Source: an uncultured Thermoplasmata archaeon (GTDB lineage Archaea > Thermoplasmatota > Thermoplasmata > RBG-16-68-12). From it: 64,000 bases of DNA. Shown one piece after another: positions 1,633-52,764 of the stretch. The translations under genes were made by a program, and so were the position numbers. Each line of letters begins with the position of its first letter. The first letter of the stretch is position 1. Below the pieces are notes generated by a model, which was not told the origin of the DNA, made no database searches, and saw nothing but the letters and a program-made list of their open reading frames with translations. The stretch spans positions 352,001-416,000 of the forward strand of contig CAVYJM010000006.1 in NCBI GenBank assembly GCA_963768855.1, read 5' to 3'.

Positions 1633-2655
1633 TCATTGCGCAGTCGATTCATGGACGAACGTGACGAGACCCTGGAGGTTCTCGATGGGTGTGTCGGGCA
1701 GGACGCCATGGCCGAGGTTGAAGATGTGGCCCACGCGTCCGTCCGCCCGTTTCAGGACGTCCGCGGCCCCGGTGCGCCACGTGTCGGGCGGGCCGAGGAG
1801 CGCCGCCGGATCGAGGTTCCCCTGGAGGCCTCGATCCACGCCGACCCGATGCCACGCCGCATCGAGAGGGATACGCCAGTCGATCCCGATCACGTCGCCT
1901 CCCGCGGCGGCGAAGCTCTCCAGGAATCCGGCGGTCCCGGTACCGAAGTGGATGACCGGGACGCCCATCTCGCGGAGACCCGCGAACAGCCGGCGGGTGT
2001 GCGGCAGCACGTGCGCCGCGTAGTCGTGCGGACTCAGTGCCCCGGCCCAGCTGTCGAAGACCTGCAACGCCTGAGCGCCCGCCTGGACCTGCGCCCTCAG
2101 GTAGTCCGCCATCCCATCCGCGAGGAGCCCGAGGAGCCGGCCCCACGCCTCCGGATAGCGGTAGAGGAACGTCTTCGTCGCGACGAAGTCCTTCGTGGCC
2201 CCACCCTCCAGGAGGTAGCTGGCCAGGGTGAACGGAGCGCCGCAGAAACCGATGAAGGGCACGCTGGCCTTCGCCCGGACACGGCGGATCGTCTCGAGGA
2301 CGAACGGGACGTCCCGTTCCGGGTCGAGCGGCTTCAGGCCGCCGACGTCCTCCGGGGTCCGAATGGGCCTCTCGATCACGGGACCCTCCCCCGCGGCGAT
2401 TCGCACGGGGACGCCCATCGCCTCCAGCGGGATGAGCAGGTCCGCGAACAGGATCGCAGCGTCCACGCCGAGTTCCCGCAACGGCTGGAGCGTCACCTGG
2501 GTCGCGACCTCGGGATTCTTCACCATGTCCAGGATCCCGTGCTTCTCGCGGAGGGCGCGGTAGGACGGCGAGGATCGCCCCGCCTGGCGCATGAACCAGA
2601 CGGGCGTGCGGTCCACGGGCTCCCGCCAGCACGCCCGGAGGAAGCGGTCCTTCAC
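1633..2655 (-). CDS. hemE: Uroporphyrinogen decarboxylase
   Basis: PVWFMRQAGR, DAAILFADLL, GAPFTLASY, QVFDSWAG, LQGNLDP, FNLGHG; GTG start. Confidence 0.96.
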   Translation of the reverse strand: MKDRFLRACWREPVDRTPVWFMRQAGRSSPSYRALREKHGILDMVKNPEVATQVTLQPLRELGVDAAILFADLLIPLEAMGVPVRIAAGEGPVIERPIRTPEDVGGLKPLDPERDVPFVLETIRRVRAKASVPFIGFCGAPFTLASYLLEGGATKDFVATKTFLYRYPEAWGRLLGLLADGMADYLRAQVQAGAQALQVFDSWAGALSPHDYAAHVLPHTRRLFAGLREMGVPVIHFGTGTAGFLESFAAAGGDVIGIDWRIPLDAAWHRVGVDRGLQGNLDPAALLGPPDTWRTGAADVLKRADGRVGHIFNLGHGVLPDTPIENLQGLVTFVHESTAQ

Positions 2656-3959
2656 GCGGCGGCCCCCAACTCGCGGAACGCTCCGGCAGCCGCCTCGATC
2701 GTGCGGTCGATGTCCGCCGCCGTGTGGGCCGTGGACAGGAAGGCGGTCTCGAAGGGAGCGGGCGGGAGGTACACGCCTCGACGGAGCATGGCCCAGAAGA
2801 ATCGGCCGTACGCGGTCTTGTCCATCCTCTGCGCGTCCTCCAGGTTGCGCACTGGACCATCGACGAAGAAGAGCCCCATCATGGATTCGACCCGCTGGAT
2901 CCGGATCGTGATCCCGGCATCGGCCGCCGCGTCGCGCATCCCGTCCTCGAGCCGCTTGGCGGAGGCATCGAGGCGCGTGTAGAGGGACGGCCGCACCTGC
3001 CCGAGCGCGGCGCGGCCCGCGGCCATCGCGAGCGGGTTCCCGGCGAGGGTTCCCGCCTGGTAGACGGGCCCGAGCGGGGCCACCCGCTCCATGACGTCTC
3101 GCCGGCCGCCGTACGCGGCCACGGGGAGCCCGTGGCCCAGGATCTTGCCCAGGCAGGTGAGATCCGGCCGGATGCCGAAGAGGGACTGGGCGCCGCCGGG
3201 GGCGACCCGGAATCCCGTGATGACCTCGTCGAAGATCAGGAGGGTGCCATGGGCCTGTGCGACCCGCTGGAGTCCCTCGAGGAAGCCGCGGTCCGGCGGG
3301 ACGACTCCCATGTTCCCCGCGACGGGTTCGACCAGGATGGCGGCGATCGAGTCGCCGTGCAAGGTGAAGAGCTCCTCGACGGCCTCGAGGTCGTTGTAGG
3401 GGGCCACGAGCGTGTCCTCGACGGTCCCTTCGGGCACGCCAGCGGAGCGCGGCATCCCGGTCGCGGCGATCCCCGACCCCGCTCGGACGAGGAACTGGTC
3501 CGCGTGGCCGTGGTATCCGCCCTCGAACACGAGGACGCGGTCCCGGCCCGTGAACCCCCGCGCGGCCCGCACCGCGGACATCGTGGCCTCCGTGCCGGAG
3601 TTGACGAAACGAAGGAGTTCGATGGAGGGCACGAGATCCTTCACCCGTTCCGCGAGGACGACCTCGGCCTCCGTCGCGGTCCCGAAGCTCGTGCCGCGGC
3701 CCGCGGCCTCCCGCACGGCCCGGACGACCGCGGGCTGGGCATGCCCGAGGAGGAGCGCGCCCCAGGAATTGCAGTAGTCGAGGTACGCCGTCCCGTCCAC
3801 GTCGGTGAGGCGGGACCCGCGCCCCCGCACGATGAACCGCGGCGTCCCTCCGACCGAGGCGAACGCGCGGACCGGGCTGTCGACCCCGCCGACCAGGCTC
3901 TTGCGGGCGCGGGCGAAGAGCCTCTCGGAACGCGGCGCCCTCGGAATCGGCGGGTCCAT
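2652..3959 (-). CDS. hemL: Glutamate-1-semialdehyde 2,1-aminomutase
   Basis: GGVDSPVRAF, FVNSGTEATM, FEGGYHGH, IFDEVITGFR, PLP lysine region LTCLGKILG, YQAGTLAGNP; start taken at ATG 3959 rather than the longer ORF-track start. Confidence 0.95.
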   Translation of the reverse strand: MDPPIPRAPRSERLFARARKSLVGGVDSPVRAFASVGGTPRFIVRGRGSRLTDVDGTAYLDYCNSWGALLLGHAQPAVVRAVREAAGRGTSFGTATEAEVVLAERVKDLVPSIELLRFVNSGTEATMSAVRAARGFTGRDRVLVFEGGYHGHADQFLVRAGSGIAATGMPRSAGVPEGTVEDTLVAPYNDLEAVEELFTLHGDSIAAILVEPVAGNMGVVPPDRGFLEGLQRVAQAHGTLLIFDEVITGFRVAPGGAQSLFGIRPDLTCLGKILGHGLPVAAYGGRRDVMERVAPLGPVYQAGTLAGNPLAMAAGRAALGQVRPSLYTRLDASAKRLEDGMRDAAADAGITIRIQRVESMMGLFFVDGPVRNLEDAQRMDKTAYGRFFWAMLRRGVYLPPAPFETAFLSTAHTAADIDRTIEAAAGAFRELGAAA

Positions 3960-3960
3960 C

Positions 3961-4692
3961 TCAGATCCCCAGCGCGTCGAGGAGCTGCTCCGGCGTCGAG
4001 AGCAGGCAGGTGAAAATCGGCGTCTCCCGCTCCGTGTACTTGCTCGCCTCGCTCGGCCGCAGGGCCATGATGAGGTCCAGGAAGTCGAGGGGCTCGTCCG
4101 TCTCGAAGGAGAGCATGAACTCCTGGTCGTCGAGTCCGAAGGAGTAGGCCGTATGGATCTTGACGCTCGGGAACTTGCGGCCGAGCCGGAAGTGGTCCCG
4201 CATGATTTCCTGGCGCTTCTCGAACGGGATTGCATACCATTCCCGTTTCTTCCAGAAAGGGTAGACGAACAGGTACCGCGAGCCCTTGGGGAGCGCCTTC
4301 GTGGCCGCGCGCTCCTCTGAGCCGGGGGAGGATCCGCCGAAGTACTCCGACGGACGGGTGGCGGCCAGGTACGCGTAGGAGGTTTCGAGGTAGTGCCCAA
4401 GCTCTATCGAGGCGATCCGCCGGGCCAGGTCGCGGAACGCCTCGAGGCGCGGGTCGATCGTCCAGAGCATGAGGTCCGCGTCCGCGCGGATGCCGACGAG
4501 GGAATAGGTGCGGAGAAGGATCTCGTCCTCGAGGTCATGGAGGAGCGCGGCGAACTCGGCCTTCTGCTTCTTCTTGACGTCCGCGGGCAGGAGGCGCCAC
4601 TCCGGACGGACTTTGTAGAATGTGTACTTCACGAACTCCCGGGGCTCGTCCTTGTCCCCGTGACCGTGCCGTCCCGCCTCGCCCTCAGGCAT
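3961..4692 (-). CDS. chdC: Chlorite dismutase-family protein, most likely coproheme decarboxylase (ChdC/HemQ)
   Basis: YPFWK motif with the ChdC-type Tyr, proximal His in [15 protein letters not shown]; VKIHTAYS has Ile where true chlorite dismutases have the catalytic Arg; lies inside the hem operon. Confidence 0.8.
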
Positions 4693-39296: not shown

Positions 39297-39734
39297 ATGC
39301 CTTTGGACCTGGTGATCCTTGGATTCGAGATCGCGTTCGAGGGCAGCCTGGTCGGCGTGGGCGTCCTCCTGCTCGCGACGTTCCTGGCCTTCGCTCGGAT
39401 GAACAAGGACGTCCGTCGTGCTCGCATGTTCATCATGGCGGACCGCGTGAAGCGGTTCCTCGGGGCGTTCACCCTTGGCTTCCTGGCCATCGCTGCGGAT
39501 TCGATCTTCTCGATCGCCGGCTTCCCCGCTCCGCCGGCGGTTTCCGTCAGCGTCATCTTCGTGTTCCTTGCGTCCATCGTCTTTGGGAGTCTCGAGCTGT
39601 TCCTGATCGTGCGGCCACCGCGCTCGCGGTTGCGCTCGCTGCGGCCGGCGATCGGCCGTCGGGGCGGATCGCGTGCTCGCGAGGCGGCGTCGTCCGAGGA
39701 CCCGCCCGAAGGAGAGACCCATGCCGCGCGGTGA
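39297..39734 (+). CDS. Hypothetical membrane protein (3 TM)
   Basis: Three hydrophobic helices; TATA gtatatat upstream; overlaps the next gene. Confidence 0.65.
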   Translation: MPLDLVILGFEIAFEGSLVGVGVLLLATFLAFARMNKDVRRARMFIMADRVKRFLGAFTLGFLAIAADSIFSIAGFPAPPAVSVSVIFVFLASIVFGSLELFLIVRPPRSRLRSLRPAIGRRGGSRAREAASSEDPPEGETHAAR

Positions 39735-40549
39735 GGTCGAGGACGCGCACGAAACCGTCTCGACGGGAGAGGAGCCCGCGCTCGAGAACCAGCTCGAGCA
39801 GATTCTCCTCCAGCTCCGGCGACGGGCCCGCGGGGTGCGGGGCTCGGTCATCGCCGACGCGAACGGGCTCGCGGTGGCCGGGGACATCCGGGGCGGCATG
39901 AGCTCCGGCGTGCTCTCGGCGATGAGCACCCTCATCGCGCAGTCGGCGGGGGGCGTCTTCGAGAACCTGAGCATGCCGAACCCCGATTTCATCCTCATGG
40001 AGGCCCCTCTCGCCAACGTCGCGGTCATCACGATGTCCGGCGGGGAGCTCAGCCTCCTCGCGCTCGTGGACAAGGCGACGAACCTGGGGGTCCTGAAGAT
40101 CGAGATGAAGCGGGCCGCACGCGGGATCGCGGAAGCCCTCGGCCTCGCCTTCGGCGGCCGGGCGGACATCTCCGAGCTCTTCGTCCTCCACAAGAGCGGC
40201 CTCCTCCTCCGCCACTACTCCGATTCCCTGCAGGACCGACATCGACCGCGACATCCTCGGCGGGATGCTCGTCGGGGTGCAGGACTTCGTGAAGCAGACC
40301 CTCGCGACGAAGGAGGGCAGTCTGGACCAGATGCGGTACGGCGACTACACGATCTTCTTCGTGCGCGGCACGGACGTGATCGCGGCCGCGGTGGTCCGGG
40401 AGGGCGACGCCGAGAGCGTCCAGTATCAGGTCATGGACGCGCTCCAGGAGTTCGAGGAGCGCTACCGGACGACCCTGAAGTCGTGGACGGGGGACGCGAA
40501 CGCCTTCCCGGGCATCGACGCGTGCTTCGAGAAAGTCCTGCGGGCCTGA
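39721..40549 (+). CDS. Roadblock/LAMTOR2 domain fused to a longin-like domain (one +1 frameshift near 40232)
   Basis: GSVIADANGLAV..SAMS..LKIEMKRAA (Roadblock), then ELFVLHKSGLLLRH / DIDRDILGGMLVGVQDFVKQ..MRYGDYTIFFVRG; removing one base joins the two ORFs. Confidence 0.7.
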
Positions 40550-40570
40550 AGGACGCCCTCGGCTCCGCGG

Positions 40571-41023
40571 CTACGGGGCTGGCGTGAGGCCTGCATCACA
40601 CGGCGGATTCGGACAAGCCATGATCTCCTGCTGGATGAGCCAGACCGTCACCCCGGTCTGGGGACACTGCGTCACTTGGATGGACTGCATCATCCCCGGC
40701 CCCCACGTGACGGCTACGTGCTTGGTGGTGTTGGAGTGGACGAGCTGGTTCGTGTCTCCCGTCCAATCGCCCGTGTAGGCCACGGACGCCACCACGTCGG
40801 TCCAGTACGTGCTCGTGAGGTTGAACTGGAGGACGCCCTGCAGGTAGGGCGGTTGTGACGACAGGCCGCACGAAAACCCGACGCCGGAAAGCTCCAAGTC
40901 TTGTGCGAATCGGTTGATCGTCGGCGGGCCTGCGGGCCTTTGCAGCGTATACCCGATGAGGAAACCTCCCAATCCCGACAGCACGAGGGCCCCAACGACG
41001 GCTAGAACGACGAGTCCCTTCAC
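40571..41023 (-). CDS. Hypothetical secreted or membrane-anchored protein
   Basis: N-terminal hydrophobic helix, Cys-containing beta domain. Confidence 0.6.
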   Translation of the reverse strand: MKGLVVLAVVGALVLSGLGGFLIGYTLQRPAGPPTINRFAQDLELSGVGFSCGLSSQPPYLQGVLQFNLTSTYWTDVVASVAYTGDWTGDTNQLVHSNTTKHVAVTWGPGMMQSIQVTQCPQTGVTVWLIQQEIMACPNPPCDAGLTPAP

Positions 41024-43305: not shown

Positions 43306-44601
43306 TCACAGACGCTCGAGGGAATCACACCATTTCTTGAGTTGACTCGTAGGAACCCCTAGAGTCGCGGCAGATTTCCTCTCCCCATGCTGACGGTCCG
43401 ACTCAAGCGATCGAAGAGAAGCAGCCTTGGTCGAGCTCCCGTAGAGCTGCAGTTCCTGCGCCCTGATGCGCATGAAATGTCTGCCAGCCAGTGCCCGGTC
43501 GAGTAGATCGAATGCCTCGGCAATCTTGGCGGAAGCGCCCCTCGCAGTCGTAGTGTTCAGGAGGGAGCGGCAAACAGAGCACTTGCAGAATTCGCTCGGA
43601 TTCGCTGCATAGTAAGTGATTGCATTCGCTTTTACGACCTTCGTGTGTGCCCAAGGGACATAATAGCGAATGGGGGGGCCCCCGCCGCTTGCCTGGCGGG
43701 CAACGCCTTTCCATTCTGCGTAGCAGACGCCTGAAGACACTCCCTTCAACCCCGCGGCGGAAAGCATCAAGGCGTAGAACCCCCCATAGAGGGCCATCGG
43801 AGCGACCCCCCGCTCTGCGAGTTGCTGAACCAGACGTCCGTAGCCCATGAGCTGTGTTTCCGAGGAATGTGATTCGTCGAACTCGGAAATCCACAAAAGG
43901 ACACTTGGGAACTCGGCGTAGTCTGCGACAACTTGGTCGATGGAATCCTCGTCCAACAAGACGCGATCAGACAGGCAGATGACTGGGACAGTTAGTTCGG
44001 TTTTCCGCCGCGAGGCCGCACACTTTGCCATCTCGAGCGAAATAGAATACCATTCATCATCAATGGATGATGCATGGAAATAGGGTGCCACGAGGAACTC
44101 CGGTTCCAGTTGGGGGATCTCAGAACTCTCTCCAATCATTTGGAGATAGTCGGAAATCCTCCGCTGTGTCGATTCGCCTCGGGAGAGAGCAGTAAGTTCG
44201 AATGACAAGACTCTGTCAACCCATTCACGACCCGCAGCATTCAGCCTGCCGTTCTCGAAGAAATCGCGCGGCCTCAGCGGCCGCTTGCCAGCGATGGTGG
44301 GGAGTATGCCACCATATTCTTCGATTAGCTGGACATATGACTGTCGAAGGTCGTCCTCTTTCAGGACCATGCTCGGATCTTGAGCGAAGATGTAGGTCAT
44401 CGGGTCGATAAAGAATGGCTTCCGTGTCCTACCCAAAAGACCCGCGGCCCAGGATTGCCCCCACGCAGCAACGTTGGCGCCTATTACGATTCCATAGTAG
44501 CTGGGTGCTTCGGCCTCAAGGGGACCTGCGTCAGGCGCTATCCCCAATCGGTAGTAGATACGCAGGCTGCCGGACTTCCGAGGCAATTGGGCATCACCCA
44601 C
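43306..44601 (-). CDS. Uncharacterised 431-aa protein, probable TIM-barrel of the TGT/DpdA/beta-protein-like group with a C-terminal Zn site
   Basis: FFIDPMTY, LVAPYF, alternating beta/alpha pattern, GGGPPIRYY, CKCSVC-x30-H; GTG start overlaps the upstream stop. Confidence 0.6.
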   Translation of the reverse strand: MGDAQLPRKSGSLRIYYRLGIAPDAGPLEAEAPSYYGIVIGANVAAWGQSWAAGLLGRTRKPFFIDPMTYIFAQDPSMVLKEDDLRQSYVQLIEEYGGILPTIAGKRPLRPRDFFENGRLNAAGREWVDRVLSFELTALSRGESTQRRISDYLQMIGESSEIPQLEPEFLVAPYFHASSIDDEWYSISLEMAKCAASRRKTELTVPVICLSDRVLLDEDSIDQVVADYAEFPSVLLWISEFDESHSSETQLMGYGRLVQQLAERGVAPMALYGGFYALMLSAAGLKGVSSGVCYAEWKGVARQASGGGPPIRYYVPWAHTKVVKANAITYYAANPSEFCKCSVCRSLLNTTTARGASAKIAEAFDLLDRALAGRHFMRIRAQELQLYGSSTKAASLRSLESDRQHGERKSAATLGVPTSQLKKWCDSLERL

Positions 44602-45007
44602 GAGTCATTACCTGACTCCTCACCGCGGCAAGGAAGGCGGGGTACAGAACCTTGGATGTTTGAGCCCGCATCTCGACCTTAGCAATTCCATCGACTGCCA
44701 TGAGTCCGATTCCGTACTTCGCCAAAAGCTCTAGATCGACGCTCGGTACGTGCCGGGCCGAAACCGCGAGAAAGGCCTCGTGAGCGCAGAGCCTGTACGG
44801 GAGGACTTGTTGCAGACCCTGCCGCCAGTGGTCGACTTTTGCCTCGACGGCGACAACGTGCCCTGTGCGCGGAAGGACTCCGACTAAATCGATTCGCTTT
44901 GACAGAAAAGGAACCTCTGCCCGGACGCGATACCCAGCCTCGGCAAGGTAGCGTCGCACCCGCCATGTGACTTGCGTTTCCTTTTGCGGGTCATTTGTGG
45001 TCTTCAA
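44594..45007 (-). CDS. Small PD-(D/E)XK nuclease-fold protein (MmcB/sce7726-like)
   Basis: E..V..YL..GY.V..EV...RIDLV...VAVEAK...QGLQQ...Y. Confidence 0.75.
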   Translation of the reverse strand: MKTTNDPQKETQVTWRVRRYLAEAGYRVRAEVPFLSKRIDLVGVLPRTGHVVAVEAKVDHWRQGLQQVLPYRLCAHEAFLAVSARHVPSVDLELLAKYGIGLMAVDGIAKVEMRAQTSKVLYPAFLAAVRSQVMTRG

Positions 45008-45395
45008 TCACAAGCGTCTCCTTCCATTTCTTGAAGCCGTGGTCGCACGATAAAACCTTTCCTCCCCGCTCATGGCGGGCCAGCACAAGGAGGGTACAAT
45101 CGACCATACTAAGGCCCTTGGCTTTGGGATCAGCCAGCAGCCGGCCTATCTCGGCGACGATGGACTCGGGGATTTGAGTCTCGATGCGACTAAGGGTCCG
45201 AATGCGATCGGTGTCCTTTTCGTATCCCTCATGAGAGATGCCTGACTTGGCGTAGTGTTTCTTCAGCTCTACGAGGACGAGCGCATGGGTAACGTTGTAA
45301 TCGGCGCCGATGAGGTGGTCTCTAATCTTCTTCCCGCGGCCGGGCTCTCGGAAGAACGCTATCCATGCTGAGGTGTCCACAATCAACACACGCAA
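44991..45395 (-). CDS. PIN-domain (VapC-like) ribonuclease
   Basis: VDTSAW, LVELK, LSMVDC..L..AR, VLSCDHGF; TTG start approximate. Confidence 0.85.
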   Translation of the reverse strand: MRVLIVDTSAWIAFFREPGRGKKIRDHLIGADYNVTHALVLVELKKHYAKSGISHEGYEKDTDRIRTLSRIETQIPESIVAEIGRLLADPKAKGLSMVDCTLLVLARHERGGKVLSCDHGFKKWKETLVIEDHK

Positions 45396-45411
45396 GCATT
45401 GGACACTCCGG

Positions 45412-45981
45412 TCATGTCGCCCTCTCGAGATCAGGTCGGCTTCCGACGCCAAGCACATCGTCGAGGATTTTTGACTTTACCGTCATCCCTCTATAGTTGG
45501 CGTAAACATACTTCAACAACTCACTGAGCGGAACTCGGTTGAACCGTGTCTTGAGGCGTTCGAGAGCCCGCCTCTCTTCCGGCGTCAACTGGGCGAATAC
45601 CTTCTCTCCGACTTGGAGGCCGCGATCCGTCAGCCGATAAATCTCGACCTTCCCTGGTTCTCCCCCCGCATTCACCGATCCGGTCGCTGCTACCGCGTCA
45701 AGCATGTCGCGGTGGCTTTCAAACTTCTCCACATCAACCGCCAGTAGGTTTGCCTGCTTGAGCGCCTCGAGGTAATCGACGACCTCCTTAGAGTAGGGTC
45801 CGAGCTCGTAGGGCTTGTATGCGTATTCGGTCTTCGCCTCCTCAAAGCCTCCCTCCTCGAGAGCGAGGAAGACGAGCTTCTCAAGCCTTGTCACCCCTCG
45901 AATTGGCTCTCCCACGTGCTTGCTAGCCCCCTTGGCATAGAGAAGGCCCACTAGCAGGTCGAGTCCGAGGTTCCTTGCCAT
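45412..45981 (-). CDS. Panacea/SocA (DUF4065)-like wHTH protein
   Basis: GVTRLEKLVFL, YKPYELGPYSKEV..L, IYRLTDRG, FN..PLSELLKYVY..Y; TATA tttaaga ~33 bp upstream. Confidence 0.72.
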   Translation of the reverse strand: MARNLGLDLLVGLLYAKGASKHVGEPIRGVTRLEKLVFLALEEGGFEEAKTEYAYKPYELGPYSKEVVDYLEALKQANLLAVDVEKFESHRDMLDAVAATGSVNAGGEPGKVEIYRLTDRGLQVGEKVFAQLTPEERRALERLKTRFNRVPLSELLKYVYANYRGMTVKSKILDDVLGVGSRPDLERAT

Positions 45982-48532: not shown

Positions 48533-49453
48533 ATGCTGCTCGTGGCCATCGTCGGGGATCGCGGGTCCGGGAAGACGACCTTCCTCGGTCTCCTCTACGC
48601 GGCGCTCGTGAGCTCCGGCTCGGACAAGGAGGACGACCTCCGCTTCCACGTGGCCTACGAATCCCTCGATGAGATCACGGCCCTCTACCAGCGGCTCATG
48701 TCCGGTGGCTTCCCCGATTCCGCGACGAAGGAGGGGATTCACGAGCTCCGCGTCGAGCTCGGGGCCGGCAGCTCCGGTCGCGGGTTCCTCTCGCGGCTCG
48801 GGTCCCGGAAGGGGGCCGCCGGCGCGTCCACGACGATCCGCTTCACCTTGCCGGGGAATCTCGACGAGGCGGCCCATGGGTTCGATCAAGGGAGCACGTT
48901 CGGCACGGGACCGTGGCGGGAGGCCCTCGATGCGGACGTCCTCCTCATCGTGGCAGACAGCACGAAGCTCACTCCCAAGGCCGAGGACCCCAAGCCGGGG
49001 CCCATGGCGACCTACGACGACCAGATTGACTCCCTGTTCACTGCGATTCGCCGATGGCGGGCGCGAGGGGGACGCGAGGTCGTGCACCCCGTCTTCGTCC
49101 TTTCCAAGTTCGATTCCGTGGCCCCCGCGGTGCTGACCGCTGCGGAGCTCGAGCCCACCCCGCCGGACGCCTCCAAGCCGGGCCCTCGAGCCGCGTACGC
49201 GAGGGCCCTCCTGGATCCCAACCTCCCGCGGACTCTCGCAACCCTCCGGGAGACGGGCAAGGCCCGGCCCCGGCTCGCCGAGGCGCGCTACTTCTTCAGC
49301 TCCGTGCATACGAAGGCAGGCGCCCCCGGGCAACTGCCGAAGATCAAGCTTCGGGGTGGCGGCCACGGCGGCTGGGAACCGGACTATTCGAAAGACGAAC
49401 ACCTTGCTCTCTTGGAGAGGCTCGCGGAGATCGCGGCGGAGACGAAAGCCTGA
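48533..49453 (+). CDS. TRAFAC-class GTPase paralog 1 (degenerate G3)
   Basis: G1 GDRGSGKTT, FPDSAT, TLPG in place of DxxG, ADSTK, G4 SKFD; start ATG 48533. Confidence 0.78.
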   Translation: MLLVAIVGDRGSGKTTFLGLLYAALVSSGSDKEDDLRFHVAYESLDEITALYQRLMSGGFPDSATKEGIHELRVELGAGSSGRGFLSRLGSRKGAAGASTTIRFTLPGNLDEAAHGFDQGSTFGTGPWREALDADVLLIVADSTKLTPKAEDPKPGPMATYDDQIDSLFTAIRRWRARGGREVVHPVFVLSKFDSVAPAVLTAAELEPTPPDASKPGPRAAYARALLDPNLPRTLATLRETGKARPRLAEARYFFSSVHTKAGAPGQLPKIKLRGGGHGGWEPDYSKDEHLALLERLAEIAAETKA

Positions 49454-49541
49454 GGCAGACGGCCCCTCCGGCGGCGCGTCCTTTGCAAGATTGATAATTC
49501 CCAAGCAGGGTTTAAGTACGCAAGCGCCGGGTGAGGCCCTC

Positions 49542-50549
49542 ATGCCCTGCGCTCTCTTGGGGGATCGAGCCTCCGGTAAAACGACCTTCTTGGGCCTCCT
49601 GTATTCCGCTCAGGTGAAGTACGGTACGGGCGTGCATGATGACTTCCGTTTCCATGCGCCCATGGCCTCCCTGAACGTCATGTCGGCCGTCTACGAAGGG
49701 ATGAAGGACGCTCGCTTCCCGAGCGCCACCCTGAAGGAAGAAATCACGGAGCTCAGCTTCATCTTCGGTTACCTGCGGAAGGTCCAAGGCAAGCTCCCGT
49801 ACTACATCCGCCAGCAGAACTGGGCGAAACCCTTCTCCACCCTGAGATTCTCCGCCTACGACGTGTCCGGCGAAGACATCGAGGAGTTCATCGAGAGCGG
49901 CATCGCGTCGCGTCCCCTCATCCAACAGCTTCTGAAGAGCGTGGTCGTGGTCGTGCTCGTGGACTGCAGCAAGATGACGACGGACATCGACACGCCTCCG
50001 TACAAGAAGATGCTGCGGTACGACAGCACGGTCGCCAAGCTGCTCGTGGCCTTCCAGACGTACAAGAAGCAGGAGTATGACCGGCTCAAGGACTCCGGTG
50101 TCAACCCGGAACCGCCGATGATCTACCCCGCCTTCGTCCTCTCCAAGTTCGACACCCTCCGCGACGACGTGCTCGCGCGGCTGGGCTTGCACCAGGGCTT
50201 CCCCGAGGACAAGCGCGCCCGGAAAGAATACGCCGAGGCCCTGCTCCGGGTCTTCGTCCCCCAGACCCTCTCTCAGATCCGCGGCGGAAAGGTCGCGGGC
50301 GTGAGCATGGACAAGGCCGCGTACTTCCTCAGCTGGGTCCGCACGGAGACCCAGGAGGGCATGGAGCCCGTCGGCCAGCCGCGGATCGTGCGGACCGGAT
50401 TCCGGCCCGAGGGCGGCGGGGAGCCCGACTTCTCGTACGACGAGTACGTGAACTTCATCGAGCACTTCCGCCACATCGCGAACAAGATCCCCGATGAGAT
50501 CCTCGAAGCGGAGAAGTTCCAGGCCCAGTCCCTCATCCGACCGAACTAG
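49542..50549 (+). CDS. TRAFAC-class GTPase paralog 2
   Basis: G1 GDRASGKTT, FPSAT, G3 DVSGE, VDCSK, G4 SKFD; TATA tttaagta at 49511-49518. Confidence 0.85.
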   Translation: MPCALLGDRASGKTTFLGLLYSAQVKYGTGVHDDFRFHAPMASLNVMSAVYEGMKDARFPSATLKEEITELSFIFGYLRKVQGKLPYYIRQQNWAKPFSTLRFSAYDVSGEDIEEFIESGIASRPLIQQLLKSVVVVVLVDCSKMTTDIDTPPYKKMLRYDSTVAKLLVAFQTYKKQEYDRLKDSGVNPEPPMIYPAFVLSKFDTLRDDVLARLGLHQGFPEDKRARKEYAEALLRVFVPQTLSQIRGGKVAGVSMDKAAYFLSWVRTETQEGMEPVGQPRIVRTGFRPEGGGEPDFSYDEYVNFIEHFRHIANKIPDEILEAEKFQAQSLIRPN

Positions 50550-50555
50550 GGGGCA

Positions 50556-51421
50556 GTGCCGCGGCGCCCACGAAGCCCTCCGCATCGTCCACTACCGGGG
50601 ACGTCGCCCAATTCGACCATTGGATCTATGCGGTCGTTCCGAACGTTGGCTACACCACGAAAGCCCTCTCCCGAGGGTTCGATGCCGGCCTGTTCGACCC
50701 TTACCTCCGCGGGCATTACACCCCGATCCGCGCGGCTGCCGCCCAGGACATCGACGGCGAGGTCGACCTGCGGATGATCCACCCCATCCGGACCGGGCGG
50801 GAGGTCCTCCTGTCGCGCATCACGCGAGGCATCCCGGACGAGGCAGGCCGGCCGACGTTCACGAACCACACGGTCGTCGCACGTGTGGATCTCCTTCGGT
50901 CCGGTCGGGTTACCCTGGAAAGGACCTTCCGGGCGATCTCCGAGTTCGACGCGAAATCCTCCGGCGCCCAGGGGGAAGTCGACCTGCTGAGGGTTCCCAT
51001 GCGGCCCGAAGACGAAGGTCCGCCGCGCTATGGGGAGGGGATCCACAAGCATCTCACCTTCGCGGCCCTCGAGACCCTCGCGACCCGAGTCATGAAGGAC
51101 GCGACGAGCCGGACCCTCCTCCTGTGCCGCAACTCCACGGCCGAGGCCCGGAACGCGACCCTCATCCTGATCGTCGAGCTCCTGGCATGGAAGTGTGGGC
51201 TCCCTCTCTTCACCGCGATCAGCGACCCGCCCAGGGCGTCCGCGCTGAACCACTTCAACCTCGTGATCGCGCAACGAGGCGTCCGCGCGGATTCCAGCTG
51301 GGCCATCCTTGAAAGCGCCCTCACGGAACACGTTCTCCCCCGCGTGCCGGACCGCGAGGAAGTCTACCGGGCGCTGAGCGCGGCCGTTCGTCAATCGGCC
51401 GACGGCGGGCGCGCCGAGTAG
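50556..51421 (+). CDS. GTPase-associated protein with GAP1-N-like N-terminal domain (start probably masked by a 1-bp deletion near 50558)
   Basis: The frame of ORF 50774 stays open upstream: QFDHWIYAVVPNVGYTTKALSRG..MIHP..DEAGRPTFTNHTVV; the GTG at 50556 is out of frame with it. Confidence 0.6.
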
Positions 51422-52764
51422 ACGCGTACTGCGCCCGGCCGGATCTCTCGAGTCACCGTCCAACGGCGGCCGATCGTCCAGGTACCGTCGTGGGAGGCGC
51501 GGTCGGCATGATGGGGGTCGATGTGATCGAGTTCCGCCTCCAGGTAGTCGCTGTCCGTGTCCACCTCCGGGATCCAGGTGCCCTGAGACAGGACTTCGAC
51601 CAGTAGCGGCAAGCCGCTGGGTCTCCCCTTCCAACGGACGGCCAGGAAAGCCTTCCTTGCGGAGGCATCCGAGATCAGGAGATCCCTCAAGGCGAGATAG
51701 GATTCCCGCTCCCGGTGGTTCTCGGCCGGGGGCGCGTCGAGTCGTGCCTTGCGCTTCTCGAGGGCCTTGAGGAGCTTGAGCCACTCCTTGTCCGTCATCC
51801 CCTGTCGTTCCCAGGGCGAGGGGGGAGCCGCTTCGCTCGAGTCGTCGCGCGCGGCACTGGATTCCCGTGCCCGGCTGACGGCACTCTGAATCAGATCGTA
51901 CGTCGACGGCTCCTCGGTGTTCTTCGCAGGCACGACCCGGATGATCACGGCGTTCATCCCCGGATGGAACCGCGGATCAACGACGGTGAGGGTGCGGTTG
52001 TTCTCCGGGTGGAAGAGCTCCGCCAGGGTGTTGTTCACCTCCGCCGAACCGTTGCGCTTGGCGACGTCGCTCAGATGCTCGAGCGGCACAGACGTGTCGC
52101 CGTTGCGAGGGTTCGCCGCGAGGTCATCCAGATAGGCCTGGGCCACCTGCTGGGTCAGGCGGGGTCGTTTGGATCCCAGCGCGAATTGGACGACGCTCTT
52201 CACGTTCTTCGAGCCGCGGAACATGCCGCCGAAGCCCGCGCGGAGGACGGCGGTTGTGCCGCTCGCGTTCACGCACTCGTTGATCAGGTCCACCAACCGC
52301 GTGGACAGCCTCCGACGCAGCCGGCCTCCGGGCGCCCTCGACGCGTAGAAGATACCGCCCCAGCGGAGCGGTGTGTCCTCCGCCCAATCCGGGTCCGCGG
52401 CGCTCTTGCGATACCAGGCCAAGGTCTTGTCGGAAAGGATGGCCCCGACGAGCAGCGGGTCCTCCGTTTCGGCCCGGACGCGAGGCAGCAGCGCCTCGGC
52501 GGTTCGCACGGCCTCCCGTAGGAGTTGCTTGTCCTGGCGAGCCTCCTTCACCAGGGCGTGCGTATCGATCGAGTTGACGGCTTCGAGATCGAACCCTTCC
52601 TCGGGGGTCATCCGGAGGAAGGCCTTGAGTTCGCTGGTTCCCGTGACGGTGGCCCGTCGAACGATCTCGTTCCCTGTCAGGCCGCTAGCCTCCTGCTTGG
52701 CTGCCTCGTGCGGAGGTACCAAGGCGAGGAGGACCGCTGATGCCACCGGCGTGATGCCCCCCAT
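51391..52764 (-). CDS. Hypothetical ~457-aa soluble protein, no family recognised
   Basis: Long open frame with protein-like composition; 3' end overlaps the GAP1-like gene; start uncertain. Confidence 0.6.
   Translation of the reverse strand: MGGITPVASAVLLALVPPHEAAKQEASGLTGNEIVRRATVTGTSELKAFLRMTPEEGFDLEAVNSIDTHALVKEARQDKQLLREAVRTAEALLPRVRAETEDPLLVGAILSDKTLAWYRKSAADPDWAEDTPLRWGGIFYASRAPGGRLRRRLSTRLVDLINECVNASGTTAVLRAGFGGMFRGSKNVKSVVQFALGSKRPRLTQQVAQAYLDDLAANPRNGDTSVPLEHLSDVAKRNGSAEVNNTLAELFHPENNRTLTVVDPRFHPGMNAVIIRVVPAKNTEEPSTYDLIQSAVSRARESSAARDDSSEAAPPSPWERQGMTDKEWLKLLKALEKRKARLDAPPAENHRERESYLALRDLLISDASARKAFLAVRWKGRPSGLPLLVEVLSQGTWIPEVDTDSDYLEAELDHIDPHHADRASHDGTWTIGRRWTVTREIRPGAVRVYSARPPSAD

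Follow-up and report, generated by a model that had tools for sequence, protein, structure and literature searches.

Paired GTPases and a shortened GAP1-type protein in a probable archaeal branch of the DO-GTPase/GAP1-N2 systems

What kind of system is formed by two adjacent GTPase genes and the gene that follows them in an uncultured Thermoplasmata archaeon? These genes, which we refer to as A, B and C, are co-oriented in the open reading frame (ORF) listing and translations of a 64,000-nucleotide, GC-rich (about 0.65) stretch of contig CAVYJM010000006.1, which was analysed at its full length and is called the window here. The initial annotation, made from the sequence alone, had read them as an active GTPase, a pseudo-GTPase and a partner resembling both GAP1 N-terminal domains and DENN proteins, with no fused effector and with the unit ending at 51421. 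We find that the unit is larger, with a fourth conserved gene, D, convergent on it from the opposite strand (51391–52764), and we consider it probable, though well short of certain, that the four genes belong to the DO-GTPase/GAP1-N2 'GTPase-centric' systems, as a divergent branch of them in archaea.

Gene A (48533–49453, + strand) encodes a protein of 306 amino acids and gene B (49542–50549, + strand) one of 335 amino acids. Both carry a TRAFAC-type Walker A motif of the form GxxxxGK[ST] (GDRGSGKT in A and GDRASGKT in B) and an NKxD-like G4 motif (SKFD), and they have GDRxSGKTTFLGLLY and FPxxAT in common (A contains GDRGSGKTTFLGLLY, FPDSAT, TLPG and SKFD, and B contains GDRASGKTTFLGLLY, FPSAT, DVSG(ED) and SKFD). 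All of the motifs first quoted for the pair were present where they had been placed, and BLASTP identified A and B as paralogs (32% identity over 314 residues, E = 9e-40). The two differ at the Walker B/G3 site, which reads YDVSGED in B and FTLPGNL in A, and we regard B as a predicted active DO-GTPase and A as a degenerate paralog which has lost the motif (TLPGN).

DO-GTPases have been described as TRAFAC GTPases with a conserved Walker B Glu which often occur as two paralogs (Kaur et al. 2020, eLife 9:e52696; PMC7159879). The loss of G3 from one partner only, noted by the initial annotation for this one pair, holds family-wide in a motif table of 34 sequences from several Thermoplasmatota families, where YDV[SA]GED is found in every aligned B-family sequence, whereas the Asp..Gly-Glu of G3 occurs in no A-family member and LLRT, LPGN, GGIS and others are found instead. 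The DO-GTPase Walker B Glu (DxxGE) is likewise present in the B family and absent from A (TLPGN, with LLRT in relatives), while [ST]K[FY]D is mostly retained in both families and the P-loop Lys has additionally been lost by some A-family members (GSGLT and GPAFS). As G3 has been kept across the B family and lost across the A family, the pairing of an active with a degenerate GTPase is, as read from these alignments, old and systematic. In Pfam searches of 23 B-family members (E ≤ 1e-3), 22 matched DO-GTPase2 (PF19993) and 13 matched DO-GTPase1 (PF19975), with no match to any other Pfam family. Of the window proteins themselves, A reaches the DO-GTPase2 cut-off at 27.0 bits over residues 3–28 (the P-loop region) only, and B scores 23.3 bits, which is under the cut-off of 27. 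No match was obtained when the B-family profile was compared with PDB sequences.

Gene C (50561–51421, + strand) follows B directly and has 286 codons, so that the length of about 288 amino acids first given for its product has to be corrected to the 286 seen throughout the family. C contains GYTTKALS and DEAGRPTFTNHTVV, and in an alignment of 37 family members G30, Y31, R97 and H103 are invariant or nearly so, with R197 and W247 joining the GY, R97 and H103 as residues conserved across the family. Hundreds of homologs of this length can be found, all of them in metagenome-assembled genomes (MAGs) of Thermoplasmata or Thermoplasmatota, and the family is small, with 63 clusters recovered at E ≤ 1e-3 in an exhaustive profile search of 1.84 billion representatives.

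The affiliation of C is not evident from standard domain searches: a direct Pfam scan of C gave no match, nor did the GAP1-N2 model when run over the whole genome, and only 2 of the 37 family members have weak Pfam matches to GAP1-N2. It is seen with more sensitive comparisons. The nearest neighbours of C in a protein language-model search are clusters carrying PF20013 (GAP1-N2), with scores of 0.90–0.95. We also assembled a reference alignment of five PF20013-matched archaeal GAP1 proteins of about 560 amino acids, found by a PF20013 search of the phylum, and hhalign aligned the C family with this set at a probability of 96% (E = 3.8e-9 over 189 columns), superimposing the GY...S.G and D-x-x-G-R...H motifs and extending to about residue 212 of C. 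The GAP1-N likeness for which the initial annotation had argued from motifs was borne out both here and by structure, as the AlphaFold model of C matches bacterial GAP1-N2/GAP1-M/GAP1-C proteins of the ESM Atlas with template modelling (TM) scores of 0.63–0.70 over 240–255 residues. The GAP1-M part of C has no Pfam match of its own, and is suggested by the 286-residue model aligning over those 240–255 residues with clusters that carry GAP1-N2 plus GAP1-M. GAP1-C was not found: C stops at residue 286, and D gave an hhalign probability of 0.3% against the C-terminal parts of canonical GAP1 proteins and no Pfam match. Because three independent lines, namely the language-model neighbours, the hhalign comparison and the comparison of the AlphaFold model, agree, we conclude that C is, as judged from sequence profiles and a predicted structure, a minimal GAP1 protein reduced to N2 and a probable M part and without GAP1-C. 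The reference set was drawn from another family of the same class (L026–L031 in genomes G356, G308, G290, G317 and G188), which encodes GAP1 proteins of the canonical length of about 560 amino acids. Two of these score above the PF20013 cut-off, and each is preceded by an ORF of 430–490 amino acids with a hydrophobic-looking N-terminus.

The initial annotation had also likened the C-terminal half of C to DENN proteins. The AlphaFold model of C, made from the 37-sequence alignment with a predicted local distance difference test score (pLDDT) of 91.3 and a predicted TM-score (pTM) of 0.88, has a predicted longin lobe at about residues 14–150 and a DENN-like α/β lobe at about residues 156–282. 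When this model was compared with PDB structures using Foldseek, both longin and DENN-module matches were returned: TagF was the best (E = 2e-5, query TM-score (TMq) 0.48), the DENND1A/B–Rab35 complex was matched at E-values of 1e-4 to 3e-4 (TMq 0.39–0.45), and further matches included FLCN, DENND10, C9orf72/SMCR8 and the Lst4 longin domain. An exhaustive VIA-align search of 48,161 chains, which is independent of Foldseek, agrees with a VIA-align second look. In the two together the longin domain of a Lokiarchaeota Roadblock-Longin protein is at the top (Z 8.5–8.7, and 8.5 in the exhaustive search; 124–127 residues aligned within residues 13–150), with DENND1A/B (Z 8.1–8.5, 225–234 residues, root-mean-square deviation (rmsd) 5.3–5.8 Å; DENND1A at Z 8.1 over 225 residues in the exhaustive search), TagF (Z 8.2, 244 residues), the VAMP7 longin domain (Z 8.1), DENND10 (Z 7.3, 241 residues) and the longin domains of Lst4, Nprl, FNIP2 and TRAPP (Z 6.5–7.4) also found. 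Among the hits listed only TagF, DENND1A and DENND10 matched both lobes (225–244 residues), and the rest of the top of the list is almost entirely made up of longin/roadblock GTPase partners. The C-terminal lobe by itself was matched by the C-terminal DENN domain of folliculin (residues 156–280, Z 5.5), and also by helicase RecA-like domains (Z 5–6). No d-DENN helical lobe was found in the model, where the α/β lobe is followed by one short C-terminal helix (residues 266–277), and at the sequence level C has no Pfam match to DENN, uDENN or longin and the C-family profile no match to PDB sequences at E ≤ 10. A longin lobe in C is thus well supported by the model and a DENN-like lobe moderately so, and of the earlier claim of DENN likeness the two-lobe matches to DENND1A/B, DENND10 and TagF stand, at the level of the fold and with Z-scores of about 8. 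The model places the GY where the second strand begins; the D..GR..H motif spans the loop leading into the fifth strand and the beginning of that strand.

Genes A, B and C with a convergent D are found together in the window and in four related loci (L001, L003, L022 and L025), and the trio is linked across several Thermoplasmatota families, as the reading in the initial annotation requires. Gene order varies when hidden Markov model (HMM) searches are extended to variant loci, with B–C–A in another family of the class (L016) and A'–B–C in a third (L021), in each case with D still convergent. Loci more remote from that of the window retain both GTPases together with C but differ in the rest: an 839 amino acid Ig-like and FGE-sulfatase protein is convergent on C in L018, a peptidoglycan-binding/CAP protein lies upstream in L019, and in L020 the convergent gene encodes a 438 amino acid protein unrelated to D (hhalign probability 0.4%). 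Pfam found no fibronectin type III (FNIII) domain in D or in the neighbouring genes of the window, and it is Ig-like, peptidoglycan-binding or FGE-sulfatase proteins that some of the variant loci carry instead. L015 (4994–8655) has a lone B-like GTPase (45% identity to B) and, after it, a C protein in fusion with an AAA+ ATPase, a RuvB-like winged helix and DUF835, and fusions to HerA-like ATPases also occur among C-family proteins. The variable fourth parts and the fusions around C match the pattern of a constant core with variable components described for these systems (PMC7159879). In the fusion protein of L014 (884–2239, P0400) TIR_2 precedes a C-family domain, and the next gene encodes a protein with TrkA_N and RyR domains (2259–4154); there is no GTPase on this 4.2 kb contig.

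The distribution of the cassette is uneven, as C was identified in 12 of 401 genomes of the phylum, in 17 of the 24 species of the window's genus, and in 2 of the 16 other genomes of the order. Close relatives have flanking ApbA-like and SRPBCC genes in common and distant relatives have unrelated flanks. DNA near-identical or related to the window is present in wetland and freshwater-sediment metagenomes. A–D are spanned at about 88–99% identity by contigs obtained from DNA runs of wetland and sediment samples and from a single soil metatranscriptome (the runs contain at most a third of the sampled words, and the contigs come from relatives). We take the soil contigs as a weak hint of expression in relatives, and note that neither transcription nor transcript ends nor editing at the first codon of gene C can be read from these contigs.

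The initial annotation was literally right that no effector is fused to the trio, and missed its conserved neighbour. Gene D (51391–52764, – strand) encodes a conserved 457 amino acid protein that belongs to no known family, with 219 homologs at 57–84% identity, all from the same kind of MAGs as C, and of the 401 genomes of the phylum the 7 with D all have C as well. The 3' ends of C and D overlap by 31 nt (51391–51421), and the overlap is exactly the same length in all close relatives (8831–8861 in L001 and L003, 4618–4648 in L022, 939–969 in L024 and 3831–3861 in L025), which may reflect a constraint or a site of antisense interplay. No match to D was found in Pfam or NCBIfam and nothing meaningful in PADLOC, two atlas feature searches gave no usable hit, and comparison with the PDB produced no sequence-profile match and no Foldseek match at E ≤ 0.001. 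The AlphaFold model of D has a pLDDT of 47, with only residues of about 315–457 above 70, and the exhaustive VIA-align search found generic helical-bundle matches only, on low-confidence residues. D-like domains also stand alone in one genus, at 2–4 per genome and in frames of 614–982 codons (L042 5866–8070, L043 5960–7801, L044 2106–4748 and L045 5076–8021), with no GTPase or C genes nearby and with in-frame stops in some; Pfam gave no match for these four paralogs. It follows that D is not exclusive to the GTPase cassette.

How might such a cassette work? B, in which the P-loop, the Walker B Asp and the signature Glu of the family are intact, would be the working GTPase, and A, an ancient paralog of B, probably holds nucleotide and cannot hydrolyse it; the two may form an asymmetric pair with B as the only member to hydrolyse GTP. 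By analogy with the longin/DENN regulators of Rab, Rag and Arf, C would dock on this pair through its longin lobe, the face of which bears the family-invariant GY and D-x-x-G-R...H residues, and it would either set the nucleotide state, as a GTPase-activating protein (GAP) or guanine nucleotide exchange factor (GEF), or relay that state. As D fills the slot taken elsewhere by the FGE-sulfatase protein and other C-family proteins are fused to AAA+ or TIR domains, we propose that D may be a clade-specific sensor or output. The dimerisation of A and B, the binding of C, the direction of regulation, the role of D, and whether the system serves in conflict and defence or in other signalling are all inferred. 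A co-folding run on A, B and C, in which C was set as the partner, yielded scores of 0.11 and 0.00 against a mark of 0.32, and counts neither for nor against the proposal.

The start of gene C bears on whether the system is intact in this lineage. The codon at 50561 is GCG in the window and in two other loci (L022 and L024; the three are independent metagenome assemblies of one lineage), whereas the other species of the genus all have ATG or GTG at this point. Here the frame of C contains no ATG, GTG or TTG upstream of 50774, and the first canonical in-frame start, 71 codons downstream, is the ATG (50774–50776, + strand) chosen by gene callers, whose 215 amino acid product (P0080, P0104, P0105, P0115 and P0121) would be without the first longin strands. 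The frame is open upstream of this ATG, and the GCG lineage retains a GGGGG run (50549–50553, + strand) that is Shine-Dalgarno-like and, from its position 7 nt 5' of the codon where C homologs start, presumably acts as such. Between the three GCG assemblies there are 11–13 synonymous and 2–3 non-synonymous differences in the 71 upstream codons, compared with 34–36 and 15–22 in the remainder of the gene, and because these upstream differences are mostly synonymous we consider that the N-terminal codons are under purifying selection and are still translated. A lost start codon with a selected N-terminus makes C a concrete case for non-canonical initiation in archaea. Two other origins for the N-terminus were rejected: a –1 frameshift producing a B–C fusion (the frame of C is that of B minus one and is open upstream) lacks a slippery heptamer, and in sister species the B stop is in the frame of C just upstream of the normal start, while the GTG at 50556 belongs to the frame of B.

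The same data could be taken to mean that C is here a decaying pseudogene or a truncated 215 amino acid product, and that the system is inactive in this lineage. In keeping with decay are the GCG that the three assemblies share at a position of ATG or GTG in all other species, the first canonical start at 50774 and the gene calls made from it, but the upstream codons have a cleaner ratio of synonymous to non-synonymous differences than the rest of the gene, the frame is open and the Shine-Dalgarno-like run kept, and A, B and D are intact, so that we judge such an explanation to be very improbable. The resemblance of C to DENN proteins might instead be generic, amounting to a longin/roadblock-like sheet beside a Rossmann-like α/β domain, in which case C would be an adaptor or a small enzyme using the invariant Asp, Arg and His rather than a GEF or GAP. 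Z-scores of only about 8 and a two-lobe rmsd of 5–6 Å are consistent with this, as are the matches of the C-terminal lobe to helicase RecA-like domains at Z 5–6, the missing d-DENN lobe and sequence-level DENN signal, and the fact that GY, R97, H103, R197 and W247 are not known DENN motifs. Yet every listed both-lobe hit among the 48,161 chains was TagF, DENND1A or DENND10 and almost all of the others at the top of the list were longin/roadblock GTPase partners, folliculin's DENN domain matches the C-terminal lobe by itself, and C-family genes adjoin or are fused with those of P-loop NTPases; on balance we think this alternative unlikely. We are similarly doubtful of the opposite and bolder proposal that GAP1-type proteins, C included, are true homologs of the eukaryotic longin–DENN module and regulate an active/pseudo-GTPase heterodimer. 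Were it correct, prokaryotes outside the Asgard archaea would possess, in this cassette, a counterpart of the Rag-heterodimer/FLCN type of control, the DENN architecture would have arisen in prokaryotic GTPase-centred (conflict) systems, and the invariant Arg of the D..GR..H loop would be an arginine finger or an exchange wedge.

A more serious competitor, which we rate as possible and still do not favour, accepts the parts as described and makes the cassette a housekeeping or cell-biological GTPase switch for the membrane, envelope or polarity (compare MglA/MglB and Rag/FLCN), with no part in conflict or defence. It would account for a cassette that most species of the genus have (17 of 24) and that keeps its flanks in close relatives, for the up to 97% identity of B across metagenomes, for a well conserved D with no toxin-like domain, for the lack of a PADLOC match to the cassette and, weakly, for contigs of about 90% identity in one soil metatranscriptome library (these are from relatives, and DNA carry-over is possible). 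It fits less well with an occurrence in only 12 of the 401 genomes of the phylum and 2 of the 16 other genomes of the order, with the swapping of the fourth component between lineages and the fusions of C-family proteins to TIR, AAA+ and HerA-like modules, with the homology to systems described as mobile and conflict-associated (PMC7159879), or with a low-GC cluster containing a PIN domain 2.5 kb upstream (described below). Several findings weigh against the assignment to the DO-GTPase/GAP1-N2 systems that we prefer. The GTPases have neither zinc ribbons nor transmembrane segments, and an FNIII-repeat protein and a GAP1-C domain are missing, although such features are common in the described GAP1-N2 systems. 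The direct Pfam matches are weak (A at 27.0 bits over the P-loop only, B below the cut-off and C with none). The DENN likeness is at the level of the fold only, with Z-scores of about 8 that are borderline by the notes of the tool itself and an rmsd of 5–6 Å over both lobes, in a protein without a d-DENN lobe and without sequence signal to any solved structure. D is not hypervariable but strongly conserved, no toxic or enzymatic domain can be recognised in it, and one genus has paralogs of it that stand alone. Within the genus of the window the cassette is common and syntenic with its ApbA and SRPBCC neighbours, which fits a stable cellular function as well as defence, and we found no experimental test of any DO-GTPase/GAP1 system in the literature searched.

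The 88 nt spacer between A and B (49454–49541, + strand) has an AT-rich stretch, TTGATAATT, and GGTGAGG directly 5' of the ATG of B, and from these it could be read as an internal promoter with a ribosome-binding site (our sigma-70 promoter and terminator scan is of the bacterial type and does not apply to archaea). Two other features of the window were noted. A four-gene cluster of low GC content (43306–45981, – strand; 0.56 against about 0.66) ends 2.5 kb upstream of A and encodes a PIN-domain protein, a protein of 189 amino acids for which PADLOC gives a match to PDC-M19A, a small protein weakly matched by REase_MTES_1575 and a 431 amino acid orphan, and it looks like an inserted toxin–antitoxin or defence islet. 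A Roadblock/LC7-like ORF is located at 39673–40587 (+ strand), the downstream part of which continues in another frame as a 94 amino acid ORF (40265–40549).

Knowledge of the DO-GTPase/GAP1 systems comes, as far as we are aware, from a single computational survey, with no experimental test of any of them. That survey (Kaur et al. 2020; PMC7159879) lists among their components FGE-sulfatase ('FGS') and TIR effectors and peptidoglycan-binding domains, had already noted the systems in 'a few archaea' including a member of the Thermoplasmata, and does not mention a longin or DENN fold; we found no later paper on the families in the literature searched. The reference Pfam families used in our comparison were PF19975 and PF19993 (DO-GTPase) and PF20013, PF20014 and PF20052 (GAP1 of the N2 type). 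The cassette shares with these systems two adjacent paralogous TRAFAC GTPases in which the Walker B Gly is followed by Glu, a GAP1 gene located directly downstream in which the GY and D..GR..H motifs occur, a core that stays constant while the extras (FGE-sulfatase, TIR and AAA+) vary by lineage, and a patchy distribution. It differs in having a GAP1 of 286 rather than about 560 or more amino acids which consists of N2 and a putative M part without GAP1-C, GTPases without zinc ribbons or transmembrane segments, no FNIII-repeat protein, one systematically degenerate GTPase paralog, a D family which is absent from Pfam, and proteins that Pfam models barely detect or do not detect. As a small soluble version of four proteins free of membrane segments and zinc ribbons it should be tractable, and with active and dead GTPases paired in all lineages examined it provides a clean model for pseudo-GTPase partners.

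The predicted longin and α/β lobes of C are shared with the DENN GEFs (DENND1A/B–Rab35, PDB 6EKK and 3TW8, and DENND10) and with the longin–DENN GAP complexes FLCN–FNIP and C9orf72–SMCR8, and C resembles these regulators further in being encoded with its presumed client GTPases, the asymmetric pair recalling the Rag heterodimer. Unlike them it has no d-DENN lobe, shows no detectable sequence similarity to them and matches their structures at Z-scores of about 8, its clients would be DO-GTPases rather than Rab, Rag or Arf, and its GEF or GAP role is proposed by analogy. In longin-type GAPs a conserved motif precedes the second strand and is adjacent to an arginine finger (PMC12290439), and compared with these R97 of C is only a candidate counterpart of that finger. 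If the longin and DENN-like fold of GAP1 is true, a large prokaryotic family of GTPase partners shares the architecture of the eukaryotic Rab, Rag and Arf regulators, which bears on the origin of the latter. TagF, a type VI secretion system (T6SS) accessory protein (PDB 9T0N, 6IZ8 and 2QNU), has the two-lobe shape of C and is likewise prokaryotic; it is the best Foldseek match of C and a full-length structural one, but it is not encoded with GTPases, acts in T6SS assembly and has no sequence similarity to C, and there is no T6SS context at the cassette. The DENN domain was long held to be specific to eukaryotes and was later found in Asgard archaea. Asgard roadblock/Rab-like GTPase/DENN operons (Liu et al., bioRxiv 10.1101/2020.10.19.343400) couple a small archaeal GTPase with a DENN-type protein, as the cassette would do, though there the GTPase is Rab-like rather than a DO-GTPase and the DENN domain is recognised at the sequence level, whereas the cassette belongs to the Thermoplasmatota and is related to the bacterial GAP1 proteins.

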